A DNA stretch of 28,133 nucleotides, taken from positions 1 through 28,133 of the forward strand of contig DAOSRJ010000002.1 of NCBI GenBank assembly GCA_035376345.1. The letters run 5' to 3'. Positions 1 to 25,836 of the stretch are shown in pieces (the stretch's first letter is position 1; every line of letters starts with the position of its first letter). Below the pieces are notes generated by a model, which was not told the DNA's origin, searched no databases, and saw only the letters and a program-made list of their open reading frames with translations. Origin of the DNA: Atribacterota bacterium (GTDB lineage Bacteria; Atribacterota; Phoenicimicrobiia; Phoenicimicrobiales; Stramentimicrobiaceae). Position numbers and translations under genes: made by a program.

Positions 1-195
1 AATGATTTCCCGATCAACATTTTGAAAAGTAAGTTGTTTTTTGAGAACAACAAATTCATAGTATTTTAATAAATCAAAACGATAGGAAGTAACTGTATTA
101 AATGATAGACCTCTTTCCAGAGTTAGGTATTCTAAAAAGTATTCTATTAAATCCTTTTGCTGATTATTGTTTTCTGCATTAATTTTAACATTCAT
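1..195 (-). CDS. xerD: Site-specific tyrosine recombinase XerD-like, N-terminal 65 aa only (runs off the window edge; absent from ORF track)
   Basis: Manual translation from ATG at 195 is open to base 1: MNVKINAENNNQQKDLIEYFLEYLTLERGLSFNTVTSYRFDLLKYYEF... The FLEYLTLERGLS-NT--SYR-DL pattern matches the XerC/XerD N-terminal SAM-like domain (F-YL--ERGLS-NT--AY--DL). XerD versus XerC cannot be settled without the catalytic domain. Confidence 0.8.
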   Translation of the reverse strand, partial: MNVKINAENNNQQKDLIEYFLEYLTLERGLSFNTVTSYRFDLLKYYEFVVLKKQLTFQNVDREII

Positions 196-231
196 ATATA
201 TTGATACTTACATTAATAATAGTATTAAAGA

Positions 232-1716
232 TTAATAATTAACTTCAGTATCAGGATGTATTACCTGTATCCAAACATTACCAGGTTGTATAGCTAATCT
301 ATTGCCTTCTTTGTTATAAAAGAAGGTTTTTGATCTCAAAGACTCCTTAGACCAGGTTATTTCTTCTGATCTGCCATTATAAATAATTATTCCCGTTCCC
401 TTGCCAATAAAATCAACTGCCAGCCTGCCTTCACTATCCAGTATCTTTTTGTCACTGTGCTGGATTACAAGATTCTTAACTTGCAACTGCTGACCAGTTT
501 CCTGATCAATATGAGGCTCATTATTGATAAAACGAATATATCTCTGAATCTCAGGATTGTATTTATAACTGACAGTGTAATTAGCATTGTATCTGATATC
601 TATCTTTTGAACTTCTTTGCCTGTTAATTGTTCTTTGGAGTCAATTTCAAATTGATAATCACCCCTATTAACCATTTCAATATACCCCAGCCTTTTTGCT
701 TCCCCTCTAAGCTGTTCAGTAGAAGCATATAGATTATGGGGAGGTTTTCGCTCCGGAATTCTCCAGAAAGGTTGATAATGAACCAGTTCATTGATATCAT
801 CTATTCTTTCTTCTTTTATAAATATGGCGGCATCAGGACTTTCTCCGGCATGCACGTAAATAGCATTGTGTTCCAGGGCTTTAGTAATGAAATAGGGTCT
901 GGCACTACGGATAGGACCAACTTTGCCAGCATCCTGGGTAGCAAAAATGGCTAAAAAACGTGTTATACCACCTTCTGCCAGTACTTCATAAACAATATTG
1001 GCCTTGTCCAGTCCACTTTGTGGCCGGGAATTATTAGCATTATCAATCATAATAGCTAATGGCCTCTGGTCAAAAGGAGATTCTTTTTCTGCAGTCCTAG
1101 GTAAAGTACTTAATTCCCCCGGGGTAACGATGGTTCCATAGGTAGATTCAATTCGCTCTTGTCCCGCTAAGCCCAGTCTGGCCTGTATTTCAAATTCGCC
1201 TCTTTCCAGCACCTCTCCTTCTATCTCTCTCCTGCTGGCAATACTGGGGGTTAAGTCTTGGGCAGCAATTTGTACATCAGGTATGATGGATATCTCCTCT
1301 TTAATTTGAGCTACTTCCTCTTTGGCTGGAATATCAATTTCAGGCATTTTAACTTCTACCCTGGGACTGCTTTCTACTACCATCTCTTTTTTTTCTACCA
1401 ATGGCTTTGTTTCAGTTTCTTGTATTCTAGCCGGCTCTGGTAAGGCGGGTTCCACTCTCGGCCTGACACTGGTCTCGGCAACTGGTTCTTCTCTGGTAAT
1501 CTCAGGCCTTACCGTAGTGGGATTTTTGATAGAAGGCAGTTCAACCATAGTTACCATAATAATATCTTCCAGTTCTGGAATATTAATAAGTTCAAAAGAA
1601 ATGAGATTATTAAAAACCAGTATGAATATTATATTAAGAATTATGGAAATTAGAAATGAACGCCCTAAAAACCCTTTTGAACGTAACTTTTTTCTTTGTG
1701 CTCTATATCCTGTCAT
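232..1716 (-). CDS. Chimeric protein: TonB-like N-terminal anchor plus Pro/Glu-rich spacer fused to a C-terminal DUF3048 (YerB-like) domain
   Basis: Basic N-tail, single TM (aa ~19-39) with S24-x3-N28, and IMVTMVELP motif. There are 14 Pro in aa 61-160. From aa ~217, DUF3048 signatures appear: RPLAIMIDN, RPQSGL, VYEVLAEGGITRFLAIF, GPIRSAR, HAGES, PPHNLY, and C-terminal G--WIQV. The gene lies directly downstream of exbB-exbD. Confidence 0.8.
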   Translation of the reverse strand: MTGYRAQRKKLRSKGFLGRSFLISIILNIIFILVFNNLISFELINIPELEDIIMVTMVELPSIKNPTTVRPEITREEPVAETSVRPRVEPALPEPARIQETETKPLVEKKEMVVESSPRVEVKMPEIDIPAKEEVAQIKEEISIIPDVQIAAQDLTPSIASRREIEGEVLERGEFEIQARLGLAGQERIESTYGTIVTPGELSTLPRTAEKESPFDQRPLAIMIDNANNSRPQSGLDKANIVYEVLAEGGITRFLAIFATQDAGKVGPIRSARPYFITKALEHNAIYVHAGESPDAAIFIKEERIDDINELVHYQPFWRIPERKPPHNLYASTEQLRGEAKRLGYIEMVNRGDYQFEIDSKEQLTGKEVQKIDIRYNANYTVSYKYNPEIQRYIRFINNEPHIDQETGQQLQVKNLVIQHSDKKILDSEGRLAVDFIGKGTGIIIYNGRSEEITWSKESLRSKTFFYNKEGNRLAIQPGNVWIQVIHPDTEVNY

Positions 1717-1759
1717 TATTGCTTTTAATCACCTTATAAACTATTTTAATTTGTACAAG

Positions 1760-2167
1760 TCAATTTTCCCTGGGCTTTGTAGCTATGGCAATCCTTTCTG
1801 CCCCACCTTTTTTAATCAGGTCCATAACTCTAACCACTTTCCCATGGGTTATATTTTGATCTGCTTCCAAAACAACTAAAGAATTGGTATTATTCTTAAT
1901 CTCTTCTTTTATCTTTTCAGATAAAGAATTAGGATCTATTAAGTGATTATTGATATAAAGTACATTATTTTCAGTAATAGTAACCACTACATTTTTCTGT
2001 TCTTTTACTGCAGCAAAATCGCCACTGGGCAGATCAACTTTAACACCACTCTCCACATTTATGAAGGTAGTGGTTAACATGAAAAAAAGGAGTAGTTGAA
2101 ACACAACATCAACTAAGGGAGTTAAATCAAATTTCAGAGTCTTGGTATTGGGATGATAAAATTTCAT
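1760..2167 (-). CDS. exbD: ExbD/TolR family biopolymer transport protein
   Basis: LTPLVDVVFQLLLFFM TM with the conserved Asp; C-terminal LEAD...HGKVVRVMDLIKKGG; GAGGAGG SD upstream of ATG 2167. Confidence 0.92.
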   Translation of the reverse strand: MKFYHPNTKTLKFDLTPLVDVVFQLLLFFMLTTTFINVESGVKVDLPSGDFAAVKEQKNVVVTITENNVLYINNHLIDPNSLSEKIKEEIKNNTNSLVVLEADQNITHGKVVRVMDLIKKGGAERIAIATKPREN

Positions 2168-2798
2168 CTATTTTTACATCCTCCTCTTTAATTTCTCTTT
2201 TTGATGATAAAAGATCTAATATTTCTATACTGGTTGCCTCCATCTCTTTGACCTGTCTCTCCACCCTGTTGTTGAGATAATTGTAAGCAACTATGGTGGG
2301 AATAGCTACCGAAAGACCAAAAGCAGTAGTTAATAATGCCTCAGAAATAGCACCAGCCAGAGCTTCAGGATTACCAACACCCACTATAGAAATTACCTGG
2401 AATCCTTTTATCATACCGAAAACGGTACCTAATAATCCCAATAGAGGGGCAATATTCCCCACAGTAGCCAGTATTGGCAAATTTTTTTCCAAAACAGCTA
2501 TCTCCTGGTTGGCAGTATCTTCGATTGCTTCTTTGATTTCATCTCTGGAACTGCCATATTTCAATAAAGCTGCCAAAATTATTTGAGAGATAGGGGAATA
2601 ATTTTTACGGCAGGCAGTAATCGCATAATTAATATTTCCTTTCCTGATCAGGTCACTAATACGACTGCTAAATTTGCGGGTAGAAGTTTTAATGCTCCTA
2701 AGATAAAACATTCTTTCAAAGAAAATGGCAATAGCCAGCAAGGAGCAGAAAAAAATGGGGTACATTAAAAAACCGCCTTTATAAAACATTTCAAACAT
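2127..2798 (-). CDS. exbB: MotA/TolQ/ExbB proton channel protein
   Basis: KGG-LMYP N-terminus; APLLGLLGTV-GMI (conserved Thr); ISEALLTTAFGL (conserved Glu/Thr); three TM segments; GGAGG SD. Confidence 0.92.
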   Translation of the reverse strand: MFEMFYKGGFLMYPIFFCSLLAIAIFFERMFYLRSIKTSTRKFSSRISDLIRKGNINYAITACRKNYSPISQIILAALLKYGSSRDEIKEAIEDTANQEIAVLEKNLPILATVGNIAPLLGLLGTVFGMIKGFQVISIVGVGNPEALAGAISEALLTTAFGLSVAIPTIVAYNYLNNRVERQVKEMEATSIEILDLLSSKREIKEEDVKIDEILSSQYQDSEI

Positions 2799-2933
2799 TA
2801 ACCAGTTGCCTCCTCTAAAGTTATAAGATTTCTTTAACTTTTAATTATATTATATCTTGTTAATAATCTATATATTTATAGTTCATTCTCTAAAAATTTT
2901 ATTTAGTTTATATTCTTTCTGACTTGTCTGGGT

Positions 2934-5900
2934 TTATTCTGATTTCTTTCTGGCAAAATCTGCATAAGATGATTCAGGACAGTTTTTGATAATCATTTCA
3001 TATTTTTGATTTGCCTGTAGTTCATTACCTAGCTCTTCCTGGCACAGAGCAGTAATATATAAGATATCACATACCAATACGCCGGTAGGAATGTCTTTCA
3101 GATATCTGTCTCCGACCTGTACCGCTTTTTCATATTCCCCTTTTTTAAAGTAACTCAGGCAAAGTCCATATAAAGAATTTGGAATATATTTACTATCGGG
3201 GAAACGATCCAATAATTTTTCAAAATTTATAATACTATCAAACCATTCCTGCTCTTCCAGGTCAATCTGTGCCAAAATATAAATGCCCTCTTCAGCAAAT
3301 TGACTCATAGGATGATTCTTTACAAAATCCTGTATTTTTGCTCTGGCTTCATTATAATTTTTTACTAAAAACTGTATCTTACCCAAGAGATAGTTACCTT
3401 CCTCTGAAAACTGACTCTCAGAATAATCCTGAACGAGCCTGCCAAATGATTCCAAAGCTAAGGGATAATCGTGAAGATTCAGATAGCTCCAGCTCACGCT
3501 GTACTGTACATGCGCAGCTAAAGAATGGGAACTATAATATTTAAGAAATTCCTGGTAATAGTGTATTGCTTCTGAATATTTATCTTGTTTATAGTAAGTT
3601 TCCCCTAACATATATAAAGCTCTTATGGCTACCTCATCACCAGCAAAATAATTAATACTATGGAAATACTCTTCAGCCTGGAAATAATCAGCCAAACGAT
3701 AATAACAGAGGCCCTGCCAGTAATTAATCTCTTGTCTCATCTTATCAGTGTTAACAGTATTCTCTACCTTTTTAAAAAGGTCTGCGGCTTCCTGATAGGC
3801 CCCTTTCTCATATTTATCTTTAGCCAAGCTGAAATAGCCCTCCCTGACCATAGCATCATCTGCTGTTTGCTCGGTTAAATCCTGATAGAGAGAAAGCAAC
3901 TTTTCCTCATTATTTATTTTTCGGGCTGCCTCAATCTTAAGTTCTATTGCTTCCTGACTGTTAATGTTTTCCAATATATTCAATACATCCTGATATTGTG
4001 TCAGCTGATAGTAACTTTGAGCCAGTTCCTGAGTAGCAATGGTTGAGAGCTCTCCTGCCGGAAACTGACGGACAACCCTTTCAAAATAAGTAGATGCTTC
4101 CTGGTCCTGACCTTTTCTAGCGTAAGCCAAACCTAAATCAAACAACACCTTTTCCAATATACTACCATCGATGTTCTGTTCAGCTAAGGAACTGTCAATG
4201 TCAATTACCCGGTCATAATCTTTTTGTTCTAACAATACCCTGGCTAACAGATATTGGGCTTCCACCTTAACCTGGCTTTCCTTTTTGGCCAATTCCTCCA
4301 GAATTACCATTGCTTCTTGATATTTACCCTCTTTAAATAGTGTAAAACTATAATGATACTTAGTTTCATTAATTAATTCAAAGGAAGGGTTGTTATTCAT
4401 AATATCTGTAAAATAACCCTTAGCTTTATCATACAAACCTTCCCAGAAGTAGGATTGTCCTAAGATGTATTCAATTTCAAATTTATCAAATTTCAGAGGA
4501 TCAACAGTTGATAGATTTTCATACAGGTTAATTGTCTGGGAATACTTCTTCTGTGCAAAATATATTCTTCCTAATTTATAAACTCCCTCTAAATAAAGGG
4601 TACTTCTGGGAAAGTTTTTAATTAGTAACTCTAAATCGATTTCAGCCTGTTGATAATTTCCCAATAAATAAGCGGTCCAGCCATTACCTAATAAGGAATT
4701 TTCATAATACTGGCTCTCTCCGTAATTATCTATTATATATTGATAATGTTGATTTGCTTCTCCATAATCTCCCAATTCATAGGCAGTTTCAGCCATAAGG
4801 AATCTGGCTTCTAAAAAATCAGGATTGATTGCCAGCACTTCTCTCAATTTTTCCAGGGCTTTTGCATATTCGCCCAGAGAATAAAAGTTATAAGCTAACT
4901 GATAATATTCCTTCTCCCAATCGACATCAAAGGCCTGATCCCCGCCTATTCGCTCTCTTTCTGCCAGGTATTCCTCCATCTGATTTAGATGGTAGTAAGT
5001 ACGCATTAAGTAGATCCTGGTTTTTTCAAAATTGGGGTTTATTTGAACCGATTCTTTAAACTTCAGTAAGGCATCCTGATATTCTCCCTCAGTATAATAT
5101 TTATAACCCTGGTTAAAAATCCAGACTGCTTCTCTGCCAAATTCTTTTTCTTCCATCGCTTTATTCAAATATATGCGGGCATTATTGTCAAAAGGGTCTA
5201 AACGGACCGTGGCTTCCAGATATTTAATAGAGTTATTTAAATCCCCCGCATGATAATAGCTCAATCCTAAAAAATAATTGGCCCCCTTGAAATCCTTACT
5301 GAGGTTTATAGCTAATTTAAAGAATTCAATAGCTTCCGGCCACTTTTTGTTACTATAGGCATTATACCCTGTGACATACAGTTCATAAGCTTCTCTGCCA
5401 TATATTTCAGCCTGTTGATACTGACTCACCACCCAATCAATATCCCGGTCTGGCTCTATCTTTTTTATTTCTTCTCCCTGTTCCAGTGCTTTGTCAGTCT
5501 GCCCTGATTCATAATAAATTCTCATCAGCAAGATTCTAGCTTTAATGTTATTTGGCTGATAAAAAACAGAATCAGTAAGGTTTTGAATAGTAGAAGCAGT
5601 CTTTCCCTGCTCATAATTTGAATAGGCTAAGCGATAGAGAGCTTCTGAAAGTCTTCGATAACTTATTTTAATATTGCTATTATTTTGAGCAACTTCAATA
5701 AAATTTTCCAGGCTCACTATTTCACGGGCGGTCCATTTCGTCTTTTCGTAGATCTGGGATAGCAGATAGTATGCTTCAGCAAAATGAGGATCCTCGGCTA
5801 CAGCTTTTTCTCCATATTCAATGGCCTTAGACCAGAGTGGTTTGCTGGGAAAGTCTATCCCCTGATATTCGGTTGTAGCCTGGTTTTTTAATTCCAGAGA

Positions 5901-6545
5901 CAGATAGTAATACCTTAAAGCTACCAAAGAGGTGGAAATATTCTTTTTCAGGTTAAGAGCTAAATCCTCATCAATATATAAATTGGTTTCCTGTAAAATA
6001 GTCTGGGCAATATGTTCTTTTAAGTAGAATAGATCTTCCGGTATGATGGTCATTTCCCGGAATTCAAATAGTTGATCAGACTTAGATTGGTACATAACCA
6101 GATTAAACTTGAGTATGTCTCTCTGTTCAAGAGTAAAATAACCGGTAAAAAGTAGGTCAGTTTTTAATAAATCACTTAGAGAACCGAACAGATTTAAGTC
6201 TCTGTCCACTGCTAATCTTTGGTATAAATCGATTTCTGGTAATTTTTCTATTTCTTCCAGAGAAACGAAATCTATTTTCTCTGATTGAGAAAAAGTATGG
6301 CTCAACATATCAGGTAAACCTCTCTCCAACCAATCCCAATCATCCTTTCCTGTCAGGTTGTCAAAATAATATACCGCAAAACTGTTTATTTCTGATGCAG
6401 TGGAAGAAAGGGTAAGAGCAGTACAGAATAATATTATGATGCAGATCGAAAATAGGCAATGTAATAATAATTTATTCAATAAAGTTTTAGAGGGATTCTG
6501 CAATCTATTTTCCCGCCAGTTTAAAAAAATGAACCTTATTTTCAC
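2934..6545 (-). CDS. Large exported TPR protein with N-terminal CsgG/TolB_N/FlgO-like domain and many CpoB/BamD-like TPRs
   Basis: GTG start. Hydrophobic signal segment at aa ~22-50. FAVYYFDNLTG--DWDWL--GLPDML pattern (aa 56-81) is typical of TolB_N/CsgG-like alpha/beta domains. Many helical-repeat motifs follow (e.g. A-Y-LG--YY--G-Y--A---F). Confidence 0.8.
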   Translation of the reverse strand: MKIRFIFLNWRENRLQNPSKTLLNKLLLHCLFSICIIILFCTALTLSSTASEINSFAVYYFDNLTGKDDWDWLERGLPDMLSHTFSQSEKIDFVSLEEIEKLPEIDLYQRLAVDRDLNLFGSLSDLLKTDLLFTGYFTLEQRDILKFNLVMYQSKSDQLFEFREMTIIPEDLFYLKEHIAQTILQETNLYIDEDLALNLKKNISTSLVALRYYYLSLELKNQATTEYQGIDFPSKPLWSKAIEYGEKAVAEDPHFAEAYYLLSQIYEKTKWTAREIVSLENFIEVAQNNSNIKISYRRLSEALYRLAYSNYEQGKTASTIQNLTDSVFYQPNNIKARILLMRIYYESGQTDKALEQGEEIKKIEPDRDIDWVVSQYQQAEIYGREAYELYVTGYNAYSNKKWPEAIEFFKLAINLSKDFKGANYFLGLSYYHAGDLNNSIKYLEATVRLDPFDNNARIYLNKAMEEKEFGREAVWIFNQGYKYYTEGEYQDALLKFKESVQINPNFEKTRIYLMRTYYHLNQMEEYLAERERIGGDQAFDVDWEKEYYQLAYNFYSLGEYAKALEKLREVLAINPDFLEARFLMAETAYELGDYGEANQHYQYIIDNYGESQYYENSLLGNGWTAYLLGNYQQAEIDLELLIKNFPRSTLYLEGVYKLGRIYFAQKKYSQTINLYENLSTVDPLKFDKFEIEYILGQSYFWEGLYDKAKGYFTDIMNNNPSFELINETKYHYSFTLFKEGKYQEAMVILEELAKKESQVKVEAQYLLARVLLEQKDYDRVIDIDSSLAEQNIDGSILEKVLFDLGLAYARKGQDQEASTYFERVVRQFPAGELSTIATQELAQSYYQLTQYQDVLNILENINSQEAIELKIEAARKINNEEKLLSLYQDLTEQTADDAMVREGYFSLAKDKYEKGAYQEAADLFKKVENTVNTDKMRQEINYWQGLCYYRLADYFQAEEYFHSINYFAGDEVAIRALYMLGETYYKQDKYSEAIHYYQEFLKYYSSHSLAAHVQYSVSWSYLNLHDYPLALESFGRLVQDYSESQFSEEGNYLLGKIQFLVKNYNEARAKIQDFVKNHPMSQFAEEGIYILAQIDLEEQEWFDSIINFEKLLDRFPDSKYIPNSLYGLCLSYFKKGEYEKAVQVGDRYLKDIPTGVLVCDILYITALCQEELGNELQANQKYEMIIKNCPESSYADFARKKSE

Positions 6546-6826
6546 TAAATGAATCTTCCTTTAATGTGTTTGGGGTTATTACAGGTTTCGATAAATATTA
6601 AATTTCTGGAAATTGATTTTAGGAATTTTCTCAGATATTAATTCTTAAAAACTTCCAACTTGAACATCATAAAGAAGTGTTATTTACACTATATTTATAC
6701 TATTTTGACCTTTGTTGCTAAATTATTTTAATATTTAATTAATACTTAAAGAGAAAGTTTTTTAGCGATTTAACAAAATTTATAATGCTTATATTTTTGT
6801 TTATTTTACATAATATCATATCTTAT

Positions 6827-8104
6827 TTAAGGAAAAAAGTAAAATTCTTTTTCACCAATTCTAACCATATCCCCCTCTTGAGCACCCATCTTTTTAAGCG
6901 CTTTCTCAACACCCCATCTCTTTAATTTTTCTTGAAAATATCGCAGGGCTTGAGGATTATCTAAGTCATATTGGTAAGCTAATTTATTTATCTCTTTTCC
7001 ATCTATGACAAATTGTCCGCCTTCTTTCTTAATTGTGAATGCCTGTCGATAAGCATAATGAGTTAACTTATTATGAGCCGGTACAGCCAGGTACTCTTCT
7101 TTTTTTTCAGCTAATTTGAGCGTCCTAAAAATCTGATATATTAAATCCCTCACACCCTCGCCGGTAAGGGCTGAAATAAAAAAAATGCTTTTCCCTTCCT
7201 TGGCAAATGATTCTCTTATCTCCGCCATATGTTGTTGTACTTCCAGTAAATCGAATTTATTTATTGCAATTAATTCTTCTTTATTTTTTAATGAAGACGA
7301 GAACTGAGCCAACTCACTCTTTATAGCATAATAATCTTTTAAAATATTTTTCCCCTCAACCCTGGCTCCATCAATGAGATGAATAATAACTTTAGTTCTT
7401 TCAATATGCTTTAAAAAACGAGTCCCCAATCCGGCACCCTGAGAAGCTCCCTCTATCAACCCGGGAATATCGGCTAATACAAATTGGTTTTCTCCATCCG
7501 TAGTGACTACACCCAGATAAGGGTCAAGTGTAGTAAAGGGATAATCAGCAATTTTTGGTTTCGCCTGGGAAACTCTTGCCAGAAAAGTAGATTTACCCGC
7601 ATTGGGACACCCCACCAATGCCGCATCTGCAATTAGTTTTAAATCTAACTTAATAGTTTTTTCTTCACCCATTTCCCCTCTTTGAGCAAATTTTGGTGAT
7701 TGAAATGCTGATCTTTTAAAACTATAATTTCCCTTGCCCCCTGAACCGCCACAGGCAACACAGATTTCTTCTCCATCCTGAGATAGATCAGCAAGGATCC
7801 TATGGTCTTTCATATCTTGCACAATAGTTCCTACCGGGATTTTCAAATATAAATCATTGCCATTCCTGCCCGTTTTTTTTTGACCGCTGCCGTTTTCACC
7901 GTTTTCTGCTTTAAAGTGAGGGTTACGAAAATATTCATTCAATGTCTTTATCTGTAAATCAGCCTGAAGGTAAACACTGCCACCCCGTCCGCCATTACCT
8001 CCATCAGGCCCGCCTTTGGGAATAAACCTTTCCCTTCGAAAACTAACACAGCCATCACCGCCTTTACCAGCTTTCACCTGAATAATTATTTCATCAATAA
8101 ACAT
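6827..8104 (-). CDS. obgE: GTPase ObgE/CgtA with C-terminal DUF1967 (OCT) extension
   Basis: MFID...AG-GGDG--SFRRE--IPKGGPDGG-GG-GG Obg fold; G1 GCPNAGKS, G2 YPFTT, G3 DIPG, G4 NKFD, G5 SAL; C-terminal GVEKALKKMGAQEGD-VRIG--EF. Confidence 0.97.
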   Translation of the reverse strand: MFIDEIIIQVKAGKGGDGCVSFRRERFIPKGGPDGGNGGRGGSVYLQADLQIKTLNEYFRNPHFKAENGENGSGQKKTGRNGNDLYLKIPVGTIVQDMKDHRILADLSQDGEEICVACGGSGGKGNYSFKRSAFQSPKFAQRGEMGEEKTIKLDLKLIADAALVGCPNAGKSTFLARVSQAKPKIADYPFTTLDPYLGVVTTDGENQFVLADIPGLIEGASQGAGLGTRFLKHIERTKVIIHLIDGARVEGKNILKDYYAIKSELAQFSSSLKNKEELIAINKFDLLEVQQHMAEIRESFAKEGKSIFFISALTGEGVRDLIYQIFRTLKLAEKKEEYLAVPAHNKLTHYAYRQAFTIKKEGGQFVIDGKEINKLAYQYDLDNPQALRYFQEKLKRWGVEKALKKMGAQEGDMVRIGEKEFYFFP

Positions 8105-11133: not shown

Positions 11134-11832
11134 TTATGCAGTAGAATCTATTAAGAATTTCTCCCTTACTATTTTTTCTATAATAACAGATTCCTCGAGA
11201 CCGGTCAGTAATTTGCCAATAATTAAACGGGGATTTAGAGATCTCCCCTGTTCCATACTGAGTATTAAACGGATAATTAACCGGCTATCGCTTCTGCATA
11301 TAATATTTATTTCCTGAATAAAGGGACGTAAATCTAATTCTGTTATCCCTTTTTTTGTTTTTGCGGCTATTATAATTTCTTTTTGCTTCAACAAATCATT
11401 AATAAATAGTTCTATCCTATCCTGAATAGCTCTTTTCTTACTTTTTAGGATAGTGTTCTGAAATCTCAAATAAACTAAATAGGAAAAACCCTTTAATAGT
11501 TTACCCAAAGAGATTTTTTCCTTTTGTGAAAATATCGGTTTTACCTCTATTACTTTAAAGCCAGAGGGGGCAGCCTTGTTAATTTTATCTATTAATACCT
11601 CACTGATTAATGGTTCAATTAGGGATAATTCCATTATTTCCTGCCATCCCTCCAGACCAAGGGGTAAAGCGGGACCAAAGGAAACCTTCATTCTGGGATT
11701 AAATCCCTCGGACAATTCTACCGGTATCTCTGCCCGTAATAGCACCCTCCGCCATAAAGAGTTTAGATCCAGATGAGAGATGAACCTCAAAGAACCATTC
11801 TTTTTGTATTTTATGCGATATAGATAGGACAT
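11134..11832 (-). CDS. TIGR03936 radical SAM-associated protein (DUF2344)
   Basis: YRIKY-K-G--RFISHLD...S-GFNP--KVSFGPALPLG; C-terminal K-KKG--E-DLRPFI; canonical position between the TIGR03960 gene and rng. Confidence 0.88.
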   Translation of the reverse strand: MSYLYRIKYKKNGSLRFISHLDLNSLWRRVLLRAEIPVELSEGFNPRMKVSFGPALPLGLEGWQEIMELSLIEPLISEVLIDKINKAAPSGFKVIEVKPIFSQKEKISLGKLLKGFSYLVYLRFQNTILKSKKRAIQDRIELFINDLLKQKEIIIAAKTKKGITELDLRPFIQEINIICRSDSRLIIRLILSMEQGRSLNPRLIIGKLLTGLEESVIIEKIVREKFLIDSTA

Positions 11833-11868
11833 AAATACACATTTCTTTCAATTTACACTGGTGAAATT

Positions 11869-13752
11869 CTATATTTTTTCATTACCTGAAAACCCTGTAT
11901 CGGCACATACGCTTTCCAAACCACAGCCCTGACATTTTATCAAACGACAATCATCGGTACTAATTCCCTGTAAAGCTTTCTCCCATTCTCTCCACAGATA
12001 TTGCCTTTCCACACCACAATCTATCAAATCCCAGGGCATAATTTCATCTTTTTCTCTTTCGCGGTGGGCATAGAAAGACATAGTTAGATTATGTTTTTGA
12101 AAAGATTCCTGCCAGCTCTCGAAATTAAAATAATCCTGCCAGGAATCAAATTTGCATCCCTTGCGAAAAGCCTCCTCTATTACATCTCCTAATCGCCTAT
12201 CGCCACGGGAAAAAACAGCCTCCAGTAAGAGTAGCCTGGTATCAGGAAAACGACAGGAAACATTTCTACTTCTTACAGCCTTAACAATATGATTAAACTT
12301 TTTTAACAGCTGATCTTCTTTTTCCTGAGCAACCCATTGAAATGGGGTATGGGGCTTGGGCACCAATGCATTGATGCTTACATTTAACAAAAATTTTTTC
12401 CCTGCTCTTTCCCTCCCCATTATTTCTACTTTTTTTATCAGCTTAACAATATCTTCAATATCATCCCAGGTTTCACAAGGTAGCCCTATCATAAAATAAA
12501 GCTTCATCCTCCTCCAGCCCATTTCTAGGGCATTTTGCACAGTCTTATATAAATCCTGGGCATTAACGTTTTTATTGATTATTTTGCTCATACGTTCAGA
12601 CCCTACCTCGGGTGCAAAAGTTAAACCTGTTTTCCTTACCCTCTGAGTCTGTTCAGCCAAAAATAAGGAAAAGCTATCTATTCTTAAGGATGGTAAAGAG
12701 ATTCCAACTCCCTTTTTTTGATAACGGTCTACCAATATTTTTGTTATCTCATCTATATGGCTATAATCACTGGAACTTAAGGAAGAGAGGGAGATTTCTT
12801 CATATCCGGTCTGTCGAATACTCTTTTCCGCTAATTCTAGCAAGCAATCTACTGAACGTTCTCTCACCGGCCTATAGATAATACCAGCCTGACAAAATCG
12901 GCAGCCACGGGTACAACCCCGAAATATTTCTAAAGTAATCCTATTATGTATGATATCAATATTGGGCACTATAGGCATAATGGGAAAAGGAGCTTGATCC
13001 AGGTTTTTCACAATTCCTTTTTTTATCCTTAAAGGGGCTTCTGGTACAGTCTTCTGGTATGATTTTACCTTGCCGCTCATATGATATTCTACCTGATAAA
13101 AACTGGGGATATAAATGCCAGTATTGATCTGCAGCAATTTTTTAAAAAGTTTCTGTTTACCATTTCTTTCTTTTTTGGTGGACCATTCTTTGTAAACATC
13201 GATAATTTCATTAATAATTTCTTCCCCGTCACCTATCACAAATAAATCTATAAATTCAGCTAAAGGTTCTGGGTTAAAGGCAGTGGGTCCTCCGGCAATT
13301 ATTAAAGGTCTGGCTGAGTCTCTATCGCTAGCCCGTAAAGGTATTTTCCCCAAATTGAGTATATTCAAAACATTGGTATAGCTCAATTCATACTGCAGGC
13401 TAAAACCGATAATATCAAACTCATCTAAAGGTCTGAAACTTTCCAGAGAAAATAGAGTAATTCCTTCATTTCGTAAATAGTTTTCCAGATCGGCTGCAGG
13501 AGCGTAAACCCTTTCTGCCCACGAATCATCTCTTCTGTTTATAATATCATAGAGAATTTTAAGCCCTAAATGACTCATTCCTATTTCATATAAATCAGGA
13601 AAAACCAGTGCAATTTTAATCAGTTTTTCATCGTTTTTTTTAATGATCTCATTATACTCTTTTCCCGTATAACGACCCGGCTTTTCTACCTTTTCTAATA
13701 TTCTATATATAGCTTCCTTATTTGACTTTCTTTTTACTTGCTCTCTATTTAT
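11869..13752 (-). CDS. TIGR03960 family B12-binding radical SAM protein (start extended upstream of the ORF-track call)
   Basis: CTRGCRFC motif; GFSLQYEL-YTN; AGGP--FNPEP; C-terminal C--C--CG. The frame stays open 58 codons upstream of ATG 13578 and encodes the family N-terminus KVEKPGRY-G-E-N...ALVFPDLYEIGMSHLG. The exact start is uncertain (ATA at 13752 or 13710). Confidence 0.85.
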   Translation of the reverse strand: MNREQVKRKSNKEAIYRILEKVEKPGRYTGKEYNEIIKKNDEKLIKIALVFPDLYEIGMSHLGLKILYDIINRRDDSWAERVYAPAADLENYLRNEGITLFSLESFRPLDEFDIIGFSLQYELSYTNVLNILNLGKIPLRASDRDSARPLIIAGGPTAFNPEPLAEFIDLFVIGDGEEIINEIIDVYKEWSTKKERNGKQKLFKKLLQINTGIYIPSFYQVEYHMSGKVKSYQKTVPEAPLRIKKGIVKNLDQAPFPIMPIVPNIDIIHNRITLEIFRGCTRGCRFCQAGIIYRPVRERSVDCLLELAEKSIRQTGYEEISLSSLSSSDYSHIDEITKILVDRYQKKGVGISLPSLRIDSFSLFLAEQTQRVRKTGLTFAPEVGSERMSKIINKNVNAQDLYKTVQNALEMGWRRMKLYFMIGLPCETWDDIEDIVKLIKKVEIMGRERAGKKFLLNVSINALVPKPHTPFQWVAQEKEDQLLKKFNHIVKAVRSRNVSCRFPDTRLLLLEAVFSRGDRRLGDVIEEAFRKGCKFDSWQDYFNFESWQESFQKHNLTMSFYAHREREKDEIMPWDLIDCGVERQYLWREWEKALQGISTDDCRLIKCQGCGLESVCADTGFSGNEKI

Positions 13753-17652: not shown

Positions 17653-19287
17653 TTATTTCTCAACACGAAATAATAGATCAATTTTACCTAAAAAAACGAG
17701 CCAGATGAAAGAAGGTAGTTGGATCATTCGAATAATTCTTTTTGGTTCTTTAATTATACGGAAGACCCATTCCATTCCATGGCTTTGCATCCATAAAGGA
17801 GCTCGTGGTATTTTACCAGAAAGAACATCAAAACTTCCCCCAATGCCTATGCAGACGGGAACACCTAATCTATCTTTATAATTGGATATCCATATTTCCT
17901 GTTTAGGAACGCCCATTCCGACCAGCAAAAAATCAGGTTTTTTTTCTGTTATATCATTGATAATATCATTTATTCTTAATCCTTCAGGGGCTTCTGAATC
18001 ATCATTATCATCAAAATAACCATGGTGGTAGCCCACAATTTGAAGGCCAGGGTATTTTTCTTTTAAATTCTGAACAGCCTTTTTAATAACTTTTTCTTCT
18101 GCTCCTAACAGATATAATCGGTAACCTTTTTTGACTGCCAGCTCACAGATGTGATTAATCAAATCAATTCCGGTGATACGTTCCGGGAGCGGTTTCTCCA
18201 GGAAAGCAGCAGCCCATAATAAACCAGCCCCATCAGGAGTTACTAAATCGGCTTGTTTGGTTATCTCTAAATATTGTCGGTCTGTCCGGGCTCTCATAAC
18301 GGCCAGAGTATCAGGCGTTATTACCAGACGAGCTCTTTCTCCCCTGACAAAATAATCAATTCGTTCCAAGGCTTGCTGTAAATTAAGGCGATCAATTGGC
18401 ACTCCAAACAATTCCAGTTTTTCTTTAAACTGGTTATAATTTATGATGGCCTCTCCCTTTAAGATCCTTTGCCTCAACCAGTAATAGGCAAGATATCCCA
18501 CCCCAATCATTGTGGTAAATAAATATATATTCTCTTTAATAGATATAATTATCGCCACAAAACTTAAATAAAAACAGGCTGAAACAATAATCAGATTGGC
18601 ACCTTTCCAGGAAAAGCCATGTTCCATCAATTGTTGTTTTAATTTACTTTCATTCACATTTCCTAAATAATCATCCCTTAAGTAGTTGGCAATAAAAGAA
18701 TAGGAAGTATCTATAATGGGAAATCCCAGAATTAAAAGTGGTGTCAATAGAGTTAAAGCAGCAGTACTCTTTAATACTCCCACAATGGCAATAACAGCCA
18801 GTAAATATCCAAAAAACATATAATAAATAGAAAAATAATTGTTTCGATCAGCTTTACTTTTTTTCTTTTCAAAAATAATTATTGAAGAAAAAACAATCAA
18901 AAATAAAGATAAAACTTCGGCAATCAAGAGGCCCTGTCTCTGAAAAACAGAAACAATAAAAAAAGTCAGGGCGGCAATAAGAACAGTTATTGGAGTGGTA
19001 TCACCTGTCTCATCAGTTTGTCCAATAGAGTTGGTGATAGTGAGCAACCAGATAACAGTGACTGGTATGGAGAGGTAACTAAGGTACCAGTAACCACCGG
19101 AATAGTTTCTTAAGAATTCTATTCTTACACCAGCTGTGATAGCTATAGAAACAATAACAACCTGACAAAAAAGTTTTAACCAGGGAGCAATTTTACTCTT
19201 CTGATTATACTTTCCTAAAAATATCATTAAAAGGCCAGCAAACATGATGCTTATTATTTTAATAAGAGAATTAATCCACTCAGCCAA
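17653..19287 (-). CDS. Fusion of a degenerate MraY/WecA-like membrane domain with a C-terminal WecB/TagA/CpsF (WecG/TagA) glycosyltransferase
   Basis: TTG start with a GGGGAGGGG SD. aa 1-~272 align by eye to the neighbouring WecA but lack its catalytic motifs. aa ~290-544 carry TagA motifs ADLVTPDG, RITGID, VG-HHGYF, VGMG-PKQE, GIGGSFD, RAP-WM---G-EW--R---EP-R. Confidence 0.85.
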   Translation of the reverse strand: MAEWINSLIKIISIMFAGLLMIFLGKYNQKSKIAPWLKLFCQVVIVSIAITAGVRIEFLRNYSGGYWYLSYLSIPVTVIWLLTITNSIGQTDETGDTTPITVLIAALTFFIVSVFQRQGLLIAEVLSLFLIVFSSIIIFEKKKSKADRNNYFSIYYMFFGYLLAVIAIVGVLKSTAALTLLTPLLILGFPIIDTSYSFIANYLRDDYLGNVNESKLKQQLMEHGFSWKGANLIIVSACFYLSFVAIIISIKENIYLFTTMIGVGYLAYYWLRQRILKGEAIINYNQFKEKLELFGVPIDRLNLQQALERIDYFVRGERARLVITPDTLAVMRARTDRQYLEITKQADLVTPDGAGLLWAAAFLEKPLPERITGIDLINHICELAVKKGYRLYLLGAEEKVIKKAVQNLKEKYPGLQIVGYHHGYFDDNDDSEAPEGLRINDIINDITEKKPDFLLVGMGVPKQEIWISNYKDRLGVPVCIGIGGSFDVLSGKIPRAPLWMQSHGMEWVFRIIKEPKRIIRMIQLPSFIWLVFLGKIDLLFRVEK

Positions 19288-22746: not shown

Positions 22747-25700
22747 ATGGGAAATTTTAAAAGATTCTTTAAAAAGAAGGTTTTTTTATTCCTTGTTTTC
22801 TTCTTCTCCCTGCTACTATTCTATGCGCTATCAGGCCTGGTTTTTAATAATTTTTCACCAAATGTTGCTCACAGTAAAAATTATGACACATCACTTGACT
22901 GGACAGTGTTGGATGGCAGGTATTGTTCAGTAATCTTTCCAGCAGGTATTTTAATTGATTATGATACAACCTATGATCATATTGCCCTTCATATTGCTAA
23001 CTTAGCTGATGAGGTATATTCCCAGATAACCCCGCAGTTTGGAGAACCTTTCCACAAAAATAAGAGATTTACCATTATTTTGGAAGATTTCAGTGATTCT
23101 GCCTATGGTTTTGCCACTACCATGCCTCATCGTCTCATCAGAGTGAATCTGACTGTACCCGGACCGGAAATTTTTGATACAAAGTTTGAAAGCTGGCTCA
23201 GAATCTTGTTAGCACATGAATATACGCACTTGGCTCATTTTGATATGACTGATAAAATAACCACATTTCTGCACTTTTTTTTAGGTCAGATTATAACCCC
23301 CAATGCTTTACAGCCTCTCTGGTCTATTGAAGGATTGGCTATTTATAATGAGAGTAGACTGAATACCGGTGGCCGCCTCACAGATAACAGATATGAGATG
23401 TACCTCAGAACTGATTTTATGGAAAACAGTATAAAAAACCCCGCACTGTTAGAGGGAAGTTACCTGGTCTCCTGGCCAGGAGGGAATATACCCTATATTT
23501 ATGGGCAATCACTGGTTCATTATATTGCCAGCCACTATGGAGAAGAAAAATTAATTGCTATCAGTGAACAGTTTTCCTCATTTCCCCTATCAGGGATGGA
23601 TTGGGCTTTAAAAAAGATATTAGGCATCACTCAGGAAGAACTATATCAGCAATGGCAGGAGGAAAAAGAGCATTACTTTAACCAACAAATTGAACAAATT
23701 ATTTCTGCTCATAAAATTACAGAATCACAGCAAATTACCAACCATCGATACTGGGTTGAGAAACCTTCCTGGATAGTAGATAATACCCTTCAGAATACCT
23801 TTCTGGTTTATAAAGTTTTTACTCCACATTTTTATCCCACTATTCGTAAATATAACCTGAACTCTCAAAAAGAAAGTGTTGTTGTAAAACGGACAGCGGG
23901 ACTTGGTACCTCTTACTCTTTTTCACCAGACTCCCAATACCTTCTTTATAGCAAGCTGGTCCAGTATGACCAGTATTATTCCTACCAGGACCTATTCTTG
24001 TATCATTTAAATAGTGGTAAGCAATTCCAGCTTACCGAAAAGTTGAGGATCAAAGACCCGTCCTGGTATCCTGACCCTGCCGCAGGCAGAGCAGCTGCCA
24101 TTATCAATCAGGCTGGCACCAATAACCTGGTCTTATTTTCTCTAAAAACCCCTTTACTGGACGGAAAATTCGATCAGCCAGAAATAATTACCTCTTCTGA
24201 TCTTATTTATCTAACCGATTTTAACGATGGAACTCAAATCTCTCAACCGGTCTGGTCGCCCCGGGGTAACCAGCTTGCTCTTTCTTTGTGGCACAAAGGA
24301 TACCAGGATATTTATATAATTACCTTTGATAATTACTTTACCATACAATCTATCAGACCAATTGCAATTGATCGATATACAGATATTAACCCTTGCTGGT
24401 CAGGTGATGGTAAATACCTTTATTTTTGTTCTGACCGCAGTGGTATATATAATATTTATGCTTATTCTTTAGCAGATGAAAAACTCTTCCAGTTAACCAA
24501 TGTAGTTACCGGTGCCTTTGAACCTGCTATCGCTCCAGATAGCAAAGACCTGGCTTATATACAATACCATTCTTCTGGCTATGAATTGCATTTGGTAAAA
24601 AGCGATGATTTGCTCTGGGAATCAGTGGAAAAACCTGAGATAACCCCCTCTATCATTCTCCCGGCTCTAAAAAATGATAAGGTCTATTTTCCTGAAATGC
24701 AGCCTATGAATAATGAAGAAAATACCCGCTCAAAATTAGCTAAAATCACTTCCAGATACGACCCCGGCTATACCTTAAAAAAATACTCGCCCAGGAATAG
24801 CATTCTTCCCACTTACTGGGTTCCTTATTTCGGTATCATTGAAAATAACCTTTACCTGGGTCTTTCCGCTCAGGCTCAGGACTATCTGGAATTTTACCAG
24901 ATCCCGGCTACTATTGCTTATAGCCCTTTTTATGATTCCTTATTTTATAGCTGCCAGCTTTATAGCTATATTAATGAACCATCTTTATCATTATCATGGG
25001 AGGGCGAAACCTCTTCTTACACCGAGTTCCAATTAACCTTAAGATTTAATGATAGTGGTTATACTTCTCAGGGAGATTCTGGCCGCCTTTTCTCCAGAAA
25101 TTTTTCTATAGGGGTACAGAGTGAATATTTATGGGCAAACCAGGAGCCACAGGCTGAGCTTCCACTAAAAGACTCTACCCTGATTAATTCTTTGTTGTTA
25201 AGATATGCTTACAATGATACCGAAAAATATCAATGGTCTTCCAGTCCCGAATTAGGTAATTCTTATTCTCTCAGCTATCAATATGGATTACCATTCCCAG
25301 ATTCTGAGACTACCTTTCACAAATTCCTCTTTGATAGCCGTAAATATTTCTCACTGCCTCATTCCCACCAGGTTGTAGCTTTACGGCTGGTAGCTGGCCA
25401 TCTTTCCAACCAGGAAAATGAAGAAAGACAATTCAGTTTAGGTGGAAGTATTTCGGCTCAAAACCTTAGCTCAGTAAATACCAAAAATTTTTCTTTAAGA
25501 GGGTTCCCCTCTTCCTCTTTTGCAGGTAATAATCTTTTGCTTGGCTCATTGGAGTATCGCTTTCCGCTAAAAAAACCAGAACGTAAAATTGGTTTCCATG
25601 CGGTATCTGTCTTTTTAGAACAAGTTTCAGGAACACTGTTTTTAGAGGCTGGACAGGTCTGGAATGAGACATTGTTGCCCTCTTTTGAGGATATTAAGAT

Positions 25701-25836
25701 TTCCATGGGTGGAGAGATTGTATTTACTTTAAAACTAAGATATACAGAACCCTTGCTATTATCTCTGGGAATTGGTAAAGCAATTAGTGAACCCCTACCA
25801 GCCCGTTTTTATGGACGGATAGGCCTTTCCTTTTAA
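22747..25836 (+). CDS. Outer-membrane protein: gluzincin-type peptidase domain + PD40/TolB-like beta-propeller + Omp85/BamA-type C-terminal barrel
   Basis: N-terminal signal/TM; HEYTH (aa 157-161) with downstream W-IEGLA; PD40 repeats (SFSPDS, PVWSPRG, PCWSGDG-YLYF-SDRSG, PAIAPDS); LRGF motif (aa 917-920); amphipathic strands ending in C-terminal Phe (GRIGLSF). Confidence 0.8.
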   Translation: MGNFKRFFKKKVFLFLVFFFSLLLFYALSGLVFNNFSPNVAHSKNYDTSLDWTVLDGRYCSVIFPAGILIDYDTTYDHIALHIANLADEVYSQITPQFGEPFHKNKRFTIILEDFSDSAYGFATTMPHRLIRVNLTVPGPEIFDTKFESWLRILLAHEYTHLAHFDMTDKITTFLHFFLGQIITPNALQPLWSIEGLAIYNESRLNTGGRLTDNRYEMYLRTDFMENSIKNPALLEGSYLVSWPGGNIPYIYGQSLVHYIASHYGEEKLIAISEQFSSFPLSGMDWALKKILGITQEELYQQWQEEKEHYFNQQIEQIISAHKITESQQITNHRYWVEKPSWIVDNTLQNTFLVYKVFTPHFYPTIRKYNLNSQKESVVVKRTAGLGTSYSFSPDSQYLLYSKLVQYDQYYSYQDLFLYHLNSGKQFQLTEKLRIKDPSWYPDPAAGRAAAIINQAGTNNLVLFSLKTPLLDGKFDQPEIITSSDLIYLTDFNDGTQISQPVWSPRGNQLALSLWHKGYQDIYIITFDNYFTIQSIRPIAIDRYTDINPCWSGDGKYLYFCSDRSGIYNIYAYSLADEKLFQLTNVVTGAFEPAIAPDSKDLAYIQYHSSGYELHLVKSDDLLWESVEKPEITPSIILPALKNDKVYFPEMQPMNNEENTRSKLAKITSRYDPGYTLKKYSPRNSILPTYWVPYFGIIENNLYLGLSAQAQDYLEFYQIPATIAYSPFYDSLFYSCQLYSYINEPSLSLSWEGETSSYTEFQLTLRFNDSGYTSQGDSGRLFSRNFSIGVQSEYLWANQEPQAELPLKDSTLINSLLLRYAYNDTEKYQWSSSPELGNSYSLSYQYGLPFPDSETTFHKFLFDSRKYFSLPHSHQVVALRLVAGHLSNQENEERQFSLGGSISAQNLSSVNTKNFSLRGFPSSSFAGNNLLLGSLEYRFPLKKPERKIGFHAVSVFLEQVSGTLFLEAGQVWNETLLPSFEDIKISMGGEIVFTLKLRYTEPLLLSLGIGKAISEPLPARFYGRIGLSF

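Follow-up and report, generated by a model that had tools for sequence, protein, structure and literature searches.

What does a proton-driven motor pull on when the protein encoded beside it ends in neither a TonB nor a TolA domain? The question is raised by four genes in a 28,133-nucleotide (nt) stretch of Atribacterota DNA (contig DAOSRJ010000002.1 of assembly GCA_035376345.1), referred to here as the window, which is contig C2 of a 1.6-Mb assembly that is 94% complete; the named relatives found for its proteins all belong to Atribacterota. In this block, genes for an ExbB and an ExbD homologue lie between one for a very large tetratricopeptide repeat (TPR) protein and one for a protein with a single transmembrane (TM) helix, whose far end is DUF3048, the domain of Bacillus subtilis YerB. 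To our knowledge, Ton and Tol were for a long time the sole routes known by which energy of the inner membrane reaches the outer envelope through the pulling of a stalk; stalks tipped with a vWA domain were added to that list in 2025. A reading made from the sequence alone (hereafter the sequence-only reading) had proposed that the motor of the window drives a DUF3048-tipped stalk, and genomic linkage, a separate Ton set and RNA contigs across the gene junctions support it. We consider it likely that a trans-envelope force machine of Ton/Tol type is encoded here, with DUF3048 in the place of the TonB/TolA C-terminal domain; an ExbB/ExbD motor with a YerB/DUF3048-tipped stalk probably represents a variant, not described before, of the systems that energise the outer envelope.

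Domain make-up of the four-gene block

The open reading frame (ORF) list places the four genes at window positions 232-6545, exactly where they had been noted, all on the minus strand and in the same direction, in the order TPR, ExbB, ExbD and DUF3048 stalk (Table 1). The start of exbD overlaps the end of exbB by 41 nt, and a gap of 43 nt separates exbD from the DUF3048 gene. Pfam searches with all four proteins returned TPR, MotA_ExbB, ExbD, and DUF3048 together with DUF3048_C; within the locus, no gene for a TonB-dependent receptor (TBDR), a TolB propeller or an OmpA/Pal protein was found, as had been claimed for it.

ExbB matches MotA_ExbB (PF01618, 7e-36) and ExbD matches PF02472 (8e-30). 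Among NCBIfam models ExbB is nearer to tolQ (TIGR02796, 1e-34) than to exbB (4e-21), both under the equivalog cut-offs, and its best match among PDB sequences is E. coli TolQ (1e-17). The tolQ score of ExbB is 120 bits against a cut-off of 221 and the tolR (TIGR02801) score of ExbD 76 bits against 127; judged by these scores, the likeness to TolQ and TolR is one of family level only. Residues T125, E153 and T158 of ExbB align with T145, E173 and T178 of E. coli TolQ, and D20 of ExbD aligns with D25 of E. coli ExbD and D23 of TolR. The roles of these E. coli residues, which carry protons in known motors, are established; on this alignment the proton-carrying residues are kept in both window proteins, in agreement with the intact motor first proposed.

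The head of the stalk protein can be recognized by sequence as well as by fold. DUF3048 (PF11258, 8.5e-47, 159.5 bits against a cut-off of 25) covers residues 211-345 and DUF3048_C (PF17479, 1e-30, 106.8 bits against a cut-off of 25) residues 372-483, and the profile score against 2psb_A is 4.5e-92. Using Foldseek, the head was matched to YerB (PDB 2PSB) at 3.6e-27 with a template modelling score of 0.87; the VIA fold search aligned 274 residues with 2PSB at 1.9 Å and 33% identity (Z 37.5), the next match reaching only Z 5. Both Pfam domains and the YerB fold thus bear out DUF3048 as the output domain proposed for the motor, and all of the invariant polar residues of the family (E244, R270, S271, R273, R395 and W455) are kept. 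A structure of the widespread DUF3048/YerB family has been available since 2007. Because YerB was the sole match of DUF3048 above Z 5 in the fold searches, the activity of the head cannot be assigned by fold; a full-text literature search on DUF3048 retrieved passing mentions only, and searches with YerB and the Pfam accessions retrieved nothing on function.

The AlphaFold2 (AF2) model of the 494-amino-acid (aa) stalk protein, built on a 124-sequence alignment, predicts a TM helix at residues 17-42, disorder over about residues 45-205 and a confident DUF3048 fold at residues 210-494 (predicted local distance difference test, pLDDT, >90 for the fold). S24 of the helix is invariant in the stalk alignment A2 (17 orthologues); at position +4 after it most Atribacterota have Asn, and His is found in P0129, L050 and P0137 as well as in P0275 and the Deinococcota-type proteins P0284, P0285 and P0287. 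The strand motif, a candidate 'motor box', follows the pattern [LIV][IV]xVx[LM][LV]E[LI]..P, with P61 invariant and E59 present in at least 90% of alignment A2, and we take it to be comparable to ISVTMV of E. coli TonB and AVMV of TolA. The genome's own TonB carries SIFFH and VRMEFV at places matching the S-x3 and strand motifs of the stalk. The extended linker has a biased composition (E 18%, I 11%, P 10%, V 9%). Pfam detected no TonB_C (PF03544) in the stalk protein (P0001) and gave no match to its N-terminus alone. Of the single-pass TonB-like protein first described, the TM helix, the linker and the layout stand, whereas homology to TonB was not demonstrated, the profile searches being non-significant; the anchor appears TonB-like by architecture and short motifs, and is not proven kin.

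The TPR protein begins with a hydrophobic stretch, either a signal or an anchor, which is followed by a domain like the N-terminal one of TolB and by about 1000 residues of TPR units of YbgF/CpoB and BamD type. Pfam TPR families match down to 1e-59, and the NCBIfam models tol_pal_ybgF (TIGR02795; 2e-60, 202 bits against a cut-off of 90, in 8 stretches) and OM_YfiO (5e-41) are matched as well; by these scores it is a CpoB/YbgF-type TPR protein, of 1203 aa rather than about 260 aa. Orthologues from other lineages begin with classical signal peptides, and these, together with the size and the TPR families, agree with the exported 1203-aa protein of the sequence-only reading. Pfam gave no match in the N-terminal stretch, where the TolB-N-like fold comes from structure only. 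In an AF2 model of residues 1-270 (pLDDT 90), the 12 best Foldseek matches of this domain were all TolB (6e-5, probability 1.0), and the wide VIA search placed TolB 1c5k_A (Z 12.7, 134 residues, 2.8 Å) ahead of a flagellar LPHT-ring chain (8z5n), CT253, CadC and LpoB. Because this fold is common to several periplasmic adaptor proteins, the domain is predicted to mark a periplasmic interaction module and not TolB itself.

Linkage and transcription of motor and stalk

A full-length stalk orthologue is present in 82 of the 86 Atribacterota species genomes and in all genera (29/29). In 13 loci from deep families all four genes stood together wherever the flank sufficed, two of these loci running off the contig just past exbD; in two complete deep-branching loci the order is ExbB-ExbD-TPR-DUF3048, so that the linkage survives permutation. 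The flanks are conserved in Atribacterota too, with RNase G-L21-L27-obg upstream and a Xer-type recombinase gene downstream, and for this reason the Atribacterota linkage alone is weak evidence of a functional link. In a GTDB scan, among the matches listed, exbBD lay alongside DUF3048 in 19/20 Atribacterota loci and in none of 60 non-Atribacterota loci, a sample and not a census (Firmicutes, including the double-membraned Halanaerobiales, Patescibacteria, Chloroflexota and others), all of them unanchored forms in housekeeping operons. The adjacency is not confined to the genome of the window, being found in these 82 Atribacterota and in high-GC triads, one of them Oceanithermus-like (Deinococcota).

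The triads emerged from a length-restricted homologue search for long DUF3048 proteins with S-x3-H anchors, which yielded three long anchored DUF3048 genes in ExbB-ExbD-DUF3048 operons with gaps of 2-10 nt, 64-73% GC and unrelated flanks. No TPR gene was found in these three Deinococcota-type loci. At triad locus L144/L145 a neighbouring gene falls into a 90%-identity cluster with Oceanithermus profundus proteins, and the locus is therefore assigned to Deinococcota (Oceanithermus-like). In the Deinococcota-type genome G087, whose completeness is not established, the triad ExbB is the only one detected, and the searches for TonB_C and for a TBDR were negative. In a tree of 74 DUF3048 domains, 53 unanchored forms fall on one side of a branch with 99% support in the Shimodaira-Hasegawa-like approximate likelihood ratio test (SH-aLRT), and 21 anchored forms, from Atribacterota, the Deinococcota type and a third lineage (G086), on the other. 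The window ExbD scores 97-108 bits to the triad ExbDs as opposed to 31 bits to the canonical ExbD of its own genome, and by these scores window and triad ExbDs constitute a distinct ExbD subfamily. Given the recurrence with new flanks, the single-branch tree and the shared ExbD type, motor and stalk look like one inherited module. As a separate observation, the control genomes of Thermus thermophilus and Deinococcus radiodurans gave matches to MotA_ExbB and none to TonB_C, a TBDR barrel or DUF3048; their ExbB-like motors are likewise without a recognised transducer.

Contig C128 of the window genome carries a complete TBDR-TonB(TonB_C)-ExbB-ExbD set. The sole TonB_C of the genome lies there, and its single TBDR adjoins this canonical TonB. 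A canonical tonB elsewhere as the evident partner had been named as a finding that would undo the proposal; such a TonB exists, with a receptor and exbB-exbD of its own, and for that reason does not qualify as the evident partner of the window motor.

These data bear most directly on the alternative that the DUF3048 protein is an envelope protein of YerB type that is membrane-anchored and has a disordered tether, placed next to exbBD by inherited synteny, while the motor serves the TPR protein or a TonB elsewhere. Such an arrangement would fit the synteny from RNase G to Xer in Atribacterota, the fact that most DUF3048 proteins are lipoproteins or signal-anchored with no motor nearby (the 0/60 among the matches listed) and the want of significant homology between the stalk N-terminus and TonB. 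We regard it as unlikely: the linkage outlasts changes of gene order and recurs in a second phylum with other flanks, the TonB of the genome has a separate exbBD, G087 shows no TonB_C or receptor that its motor could serve, and the anchored forms make up one branch that goes with a distinct ExbD subfamily.

One sludge study provided four RNA-seq libraries whose contigs extend over all four genes (95-100% identity) and span the DUF3048/ExbD, ExbD/ExbB and ExbB/TPR junctions, DNA carry-over into such contigs being possible. Across 6303-6850, contig depth in run X1 decreases from about 25 to about 1, and it increases once more within obg. A promoter-like site (9/12 matches, a consensus match only) lies at 6843-6815 on the minus strand, and a promoter of the block itself is probably situated in the spacer that separates obg from the TPR gene; no terminator-like site was found on the minus strand of the block. 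The co-transcription that the proposal implies is therefore borne out as far as the bridging of all three junctions, and not as a single transcript, which the contigs do not prove. Past the block, a Xer-type tyrosine recombinase gene (window 1-196, minus strand) begins 36 nt after the DUF3048 stop codon; a gene of this type follows the block in every Atribacterota locus examined and may be co-transcribed with it.

Table 1. Features of the block and its proteins; positions refer to the window, except in the last row, where they refer to contigs of genome G086.
Feature	Position	Strand	Remarks
TPR protein gene	2934..6545	-	1203 aa, exported
ExbB/TolQ-type proton-channel subunit gene	2127..2798	-	223 aa
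ExbD/TolR-type subunit gene	1760..2167	-	135 aa
TonB/TolA-like transducer gene, YerB-type DUF3048 end	232..1716	-	494 aa
DUF3048 N and C domains, residues 211-483, YerB fold	268..1086	-	Pfam and fold searches
Extended disordered Glu/Ile/Pro/Val-rich linker, residues ~45-205, ~160 residues	1102..1584	-	pLDDT 41-53
Strand motif IIMVTMVELP, residues 52-61, just outside the membrane, candidate 'motor box'	1531..1563	-	alignment A2
Single TM helix, residues 17-42, carries S24-x3-N28	1591..1668	-	AF2 helix
TolB-N-terminal-like alpha/beta domain, TPR protein residues 53-206	5928..6389	-	AF2 model m26f40760d37f
Spacer between obg and TPR gene	6546..6826	-	281 nt
G086 features	C13:27314-29413; C24:2217-3014; C16:10963-11739

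The mreD-PBP2-rodA shape cluster lies about 7 kb from the block. Inside it, between rodA and the RNase G gene, a radical-SAM protein (Radical_SAM_N2 and Radical_SAM, 569 aa) and a DUF2344 protein are encoded at window 11134-13578 (minus strand). A 544-aa ORF at window 17653-19287 (minus strand) combines an N-terminal Glycos_transf_4 domain (weak, 28 bits against a cut-off of 27) with a C-terminal WecG/TagA-type glycosyltransferase domain, and adjoins a second glycosyltransferase family 4 (GT4) gene and an epimerase gene. The sole long plus-strand ORF of the window (1029 aa) occupies 22747-25836.

What the motor may drive

In the mechanism we infer, the TolQ-like ExbB and ExbD would assemble 5:2 into a proton-driven motor of the cytoplasmic membrane, and the stalk would bind the rim of this motor through its TM helix (S-x3-N/H) and through the strand motif outside the membrane. 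The linker of about 160 residues would carry DUF3048 across the periplasm, and proton flow would pull on, or move, whatever DUF3048 binds. In Atribacterota the secreted TPR protein, with its TolB-N-like domain and CpoB/BamD-like repeats, would act as a partner or scaffold in the periplasm or on the outer-membrane side. The task would be envelope maintenance of the Tol-Pal kind, that is, coordination of wall and outer membrane, and not nutrient import. A wall or envelope role is suggested by the TolQ-like motor, by the CpoB and TolB-N-like modules, by the lack of TolB in the phylum and, as a weak hint, by the DgkA and SEDS neighbours of unanchored DUF3048 genes, which may point to a role in the wall or with the lipid carrier.

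These unanchored forms were observed at loci L078-L139, L140 and L141. In Thermoanaerobacterales and Halanaerobiales they sit in the operon phoH-pgpH(7TM-HD)-ybeY-dgkA-DUF3048-cdd-era-recO, and in Patescibacteria in SEDS(FtsW/RodA)-x-L25-DUF3048, where tandem pairs are frequent. Long forms with a helical N-domain make up a class found in phoH-pgpH-ybeY-CNNM-CNNM-DUF502-DUF3048-era; two such proteins, P0165 and P0229, had been candidates for motor linkage and were ruled out, as their genes belong to phoH-pgpH-ybeY-...-era operons. On the window's side of the phylum, many Atribacterota genomes encode at some distance from the motor block a second DUF3048 paralogue, which is short (about 312-340 aa) and shows 33-38% identity over the domain (for example, G084:C55:731-1555 and G047:C56:10250-11065).

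The TolQ-like motor raises the further possibility of a divergent true Tol-Pal system, in which TolA would correspond to the DUF3048 protein, a fusion of TolB and CpoB to the TPR protein and Pal to a lipoprotein that escaped detection, the whole driving outer-membrane constriction at division. ExbB is indeed closest to TolQ, the TPR protein combines its 8 YbgF/CpoB-like stretches with a TolB-N-like fold, the shape cluster with mreD, PBP2 and rodA is about 7 kb away, and the TolB_N domain of Pfam is missing from 85 of the 86 Atribacterota genomes. We nevertheless think this quite improbable. The locus has no TolA/TonB C-domain and no beta-propeller, no OmpA/Pal gene was found in it or in the genome (in the 94% complete window genome, TolB_N and OmpA-family proteins gave no match), every Tol equivalog model scored under its cut-off, the Deinococcota-type triads have no TPR gene, and the TolB-N-like fold is not specific to TolB, as it also occurs in LpoB, PelC, CadC and FlgT. 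Membership of Tol-Pal was rejected because the TolA domain, the propeller and Pal are missing.

Membership of Ton was rejected because there is no TonB_C and no linked receptor. A variant of it would remain an uptake system if DUF3048 docked on, and opened, an outer-membrane transporter of another type, and the layout of stalk and motor is that of TonB; in G086, moreover, the sole ExbB adjoins a TBDR-like barrel. This is very unlikely in our view, as no barrel gene was linked in any of about 40 loci examined, and DUF3048 is plentiful in Firmicutes and Patescibacteria that have a single membrane and lack an outer one; both observations would speak against nutrient uptake as the task.

Several points weigh against the reading of the block as a DUF3048-tipped force machine. 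The Atribacterota flanks are as syntenic as the block, and these genomes are not independent of one another. In the anchored lineage G086 (L055, 45% GC) the stalk gene, which encodes an SLIIH stalk, a linker of about 400 residues and a DUF3048 head, is solitary and away from exbBD; the genome has one ExbB, beside the TBDR-like barrel, two TonB_C proteins and, elsewhere, two homologues of the TolB-N-like/TPR module, an arrangement reminiscent of an orphan tonB. In the window stalk, the serine is followed at position +4 by Asn and not by His. The one TonB model matched by the stalk in NCBIfam (NF008084, N-terminal and spacer part, 1.7e-4 over residues 40-115, with a cut-off of 315 bits) is matched weakly, possibly by composition; an A2 profile of the stalk N-terminus, run with hmmsearch against PDB sequences, found no TonB or TolA and only a chance match to a photosystem peptide, and hhalign aligned two columns, not significantly, between the stalk N-terminus and the genome's own TonB. 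The completeness of G087 qualifies what was not found there, and one study supplied all of the assembled contigs that make up the RNA evidence, from which a single transcript is not provable. Lastly, OmpA-family proteins are encoded elsewhere in 18 of 31 good Atribacterota genomes, and a Pal-like tether is possible in the phylum; an initial statement that the phylum has no Pal was dropped for this reason.

A broader proposal, which we find rather doubtful, is that the stalk-borne DUF3048 and its own ExbB/ExbD subfamily form, next to Ton and Tol, a third and ancient class of proton-driven envelope machines, shared by Atribacterota and Deinococcota with one or more other lineages. Where double-membraned bacteria lack Tol-Pal, such a machine would exert force on a cell-wall or lipid-linked ligand at the invariant Arg/Ser/His/Glu site of DUF3048, and the DUF3048 proteins of single-membraned bacteria would be a motor-less form of the same wall-directed activity. 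The envelope of Atribacter has three membrane-like layers. If the force-machine reading is true, the DUF3048-tipped stalk extends the list of such machines to lineages without Tol-Pal, where envelope upkeep is poorly understood, and provides the first testable functional context for DUF3048/YerB. Both Oceanithermus profundus and Atribacter laminatus are cultured, which makes bench testing feasible.

Comparison with known systems

With B. subtilis YerB (2PSB), the type member of DUF3048, the head shares its fold and invariant residues; YerB-type proteins are short lipoproteins or signal-anchored with no motor nearby, whereas here the domain is borne on a TonB-like stalk. The E. coli Ton system (PDB 6TYI, 9DDO) has in common with the block the ExbB/ExbD families and their key TM residues, as well as a single-pass stalk in which a serine-x3 motif is followed, past the membrane, by a strand motif and then by an extended spacer. 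It differs in that the block has no TonB_C domain and no linked receptor, the ordinary Ton set being separate in the genome. Likeness to Tol-Pal (TolQ-TolR-TolA-TolB-Pal-CpoB) extends to the TolQ-nearest ExbB, the CpoB/YbgF-like repeats, the TolB-N-like fold and an envelope rather than an uptake setting, in contrast to the missing TolA domain III, TolB propeller and Pal and to equivalog scores under the cut-offs.

The closest system in print is that of the vWA-tipped 'motor-driven force transducers', proposed as new transducers driven by the proton motive force (Williams-Jones et al. 2025, Mol Biol Evol msaf138; PMC12204202), in which TonB-like stalks with non-TonB (vWA) heads adjoin TPR, tolQ-like and tolR-like genes; the general idea of non-TonB output domains is thus already published. 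Both systems have a TM helix (with an SHLS-type motif in theirs), a disordered proline-rich linker, a globular head other than that of TonB or TolA, and a stalk gene beside TPR, tolQ-like and tolR-like genes. Coupling was deduced in their case from synteny and models, and ours is likewise indirect. The two differ in the head, which is DUF3048/YerB here and vWA there; in the tolR-like genes, one here and a heterologous pair there; in the hosts, Atribacterota and Deinococcota as opposed to Proteobacteria, PVC (Planctomycetes-Verrucomicrobia-Chlamydiae) and Bacteroidota; and in the TPR protein, which at about 1200 aa and with a TolB-N-like domain is much larger here. That study makes no mention of DUF3048 or YerB and cites Atribacteria for TonB only, and the Atribacter literature makes no mention of the locus. 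What is new here, relative to these systems, are the cross-phylum triads, the single-branch tree of anchored forms, the ExbD subfamily, the genome G087 in which no TonB or receptor was found, and the TolB-N-like fold.

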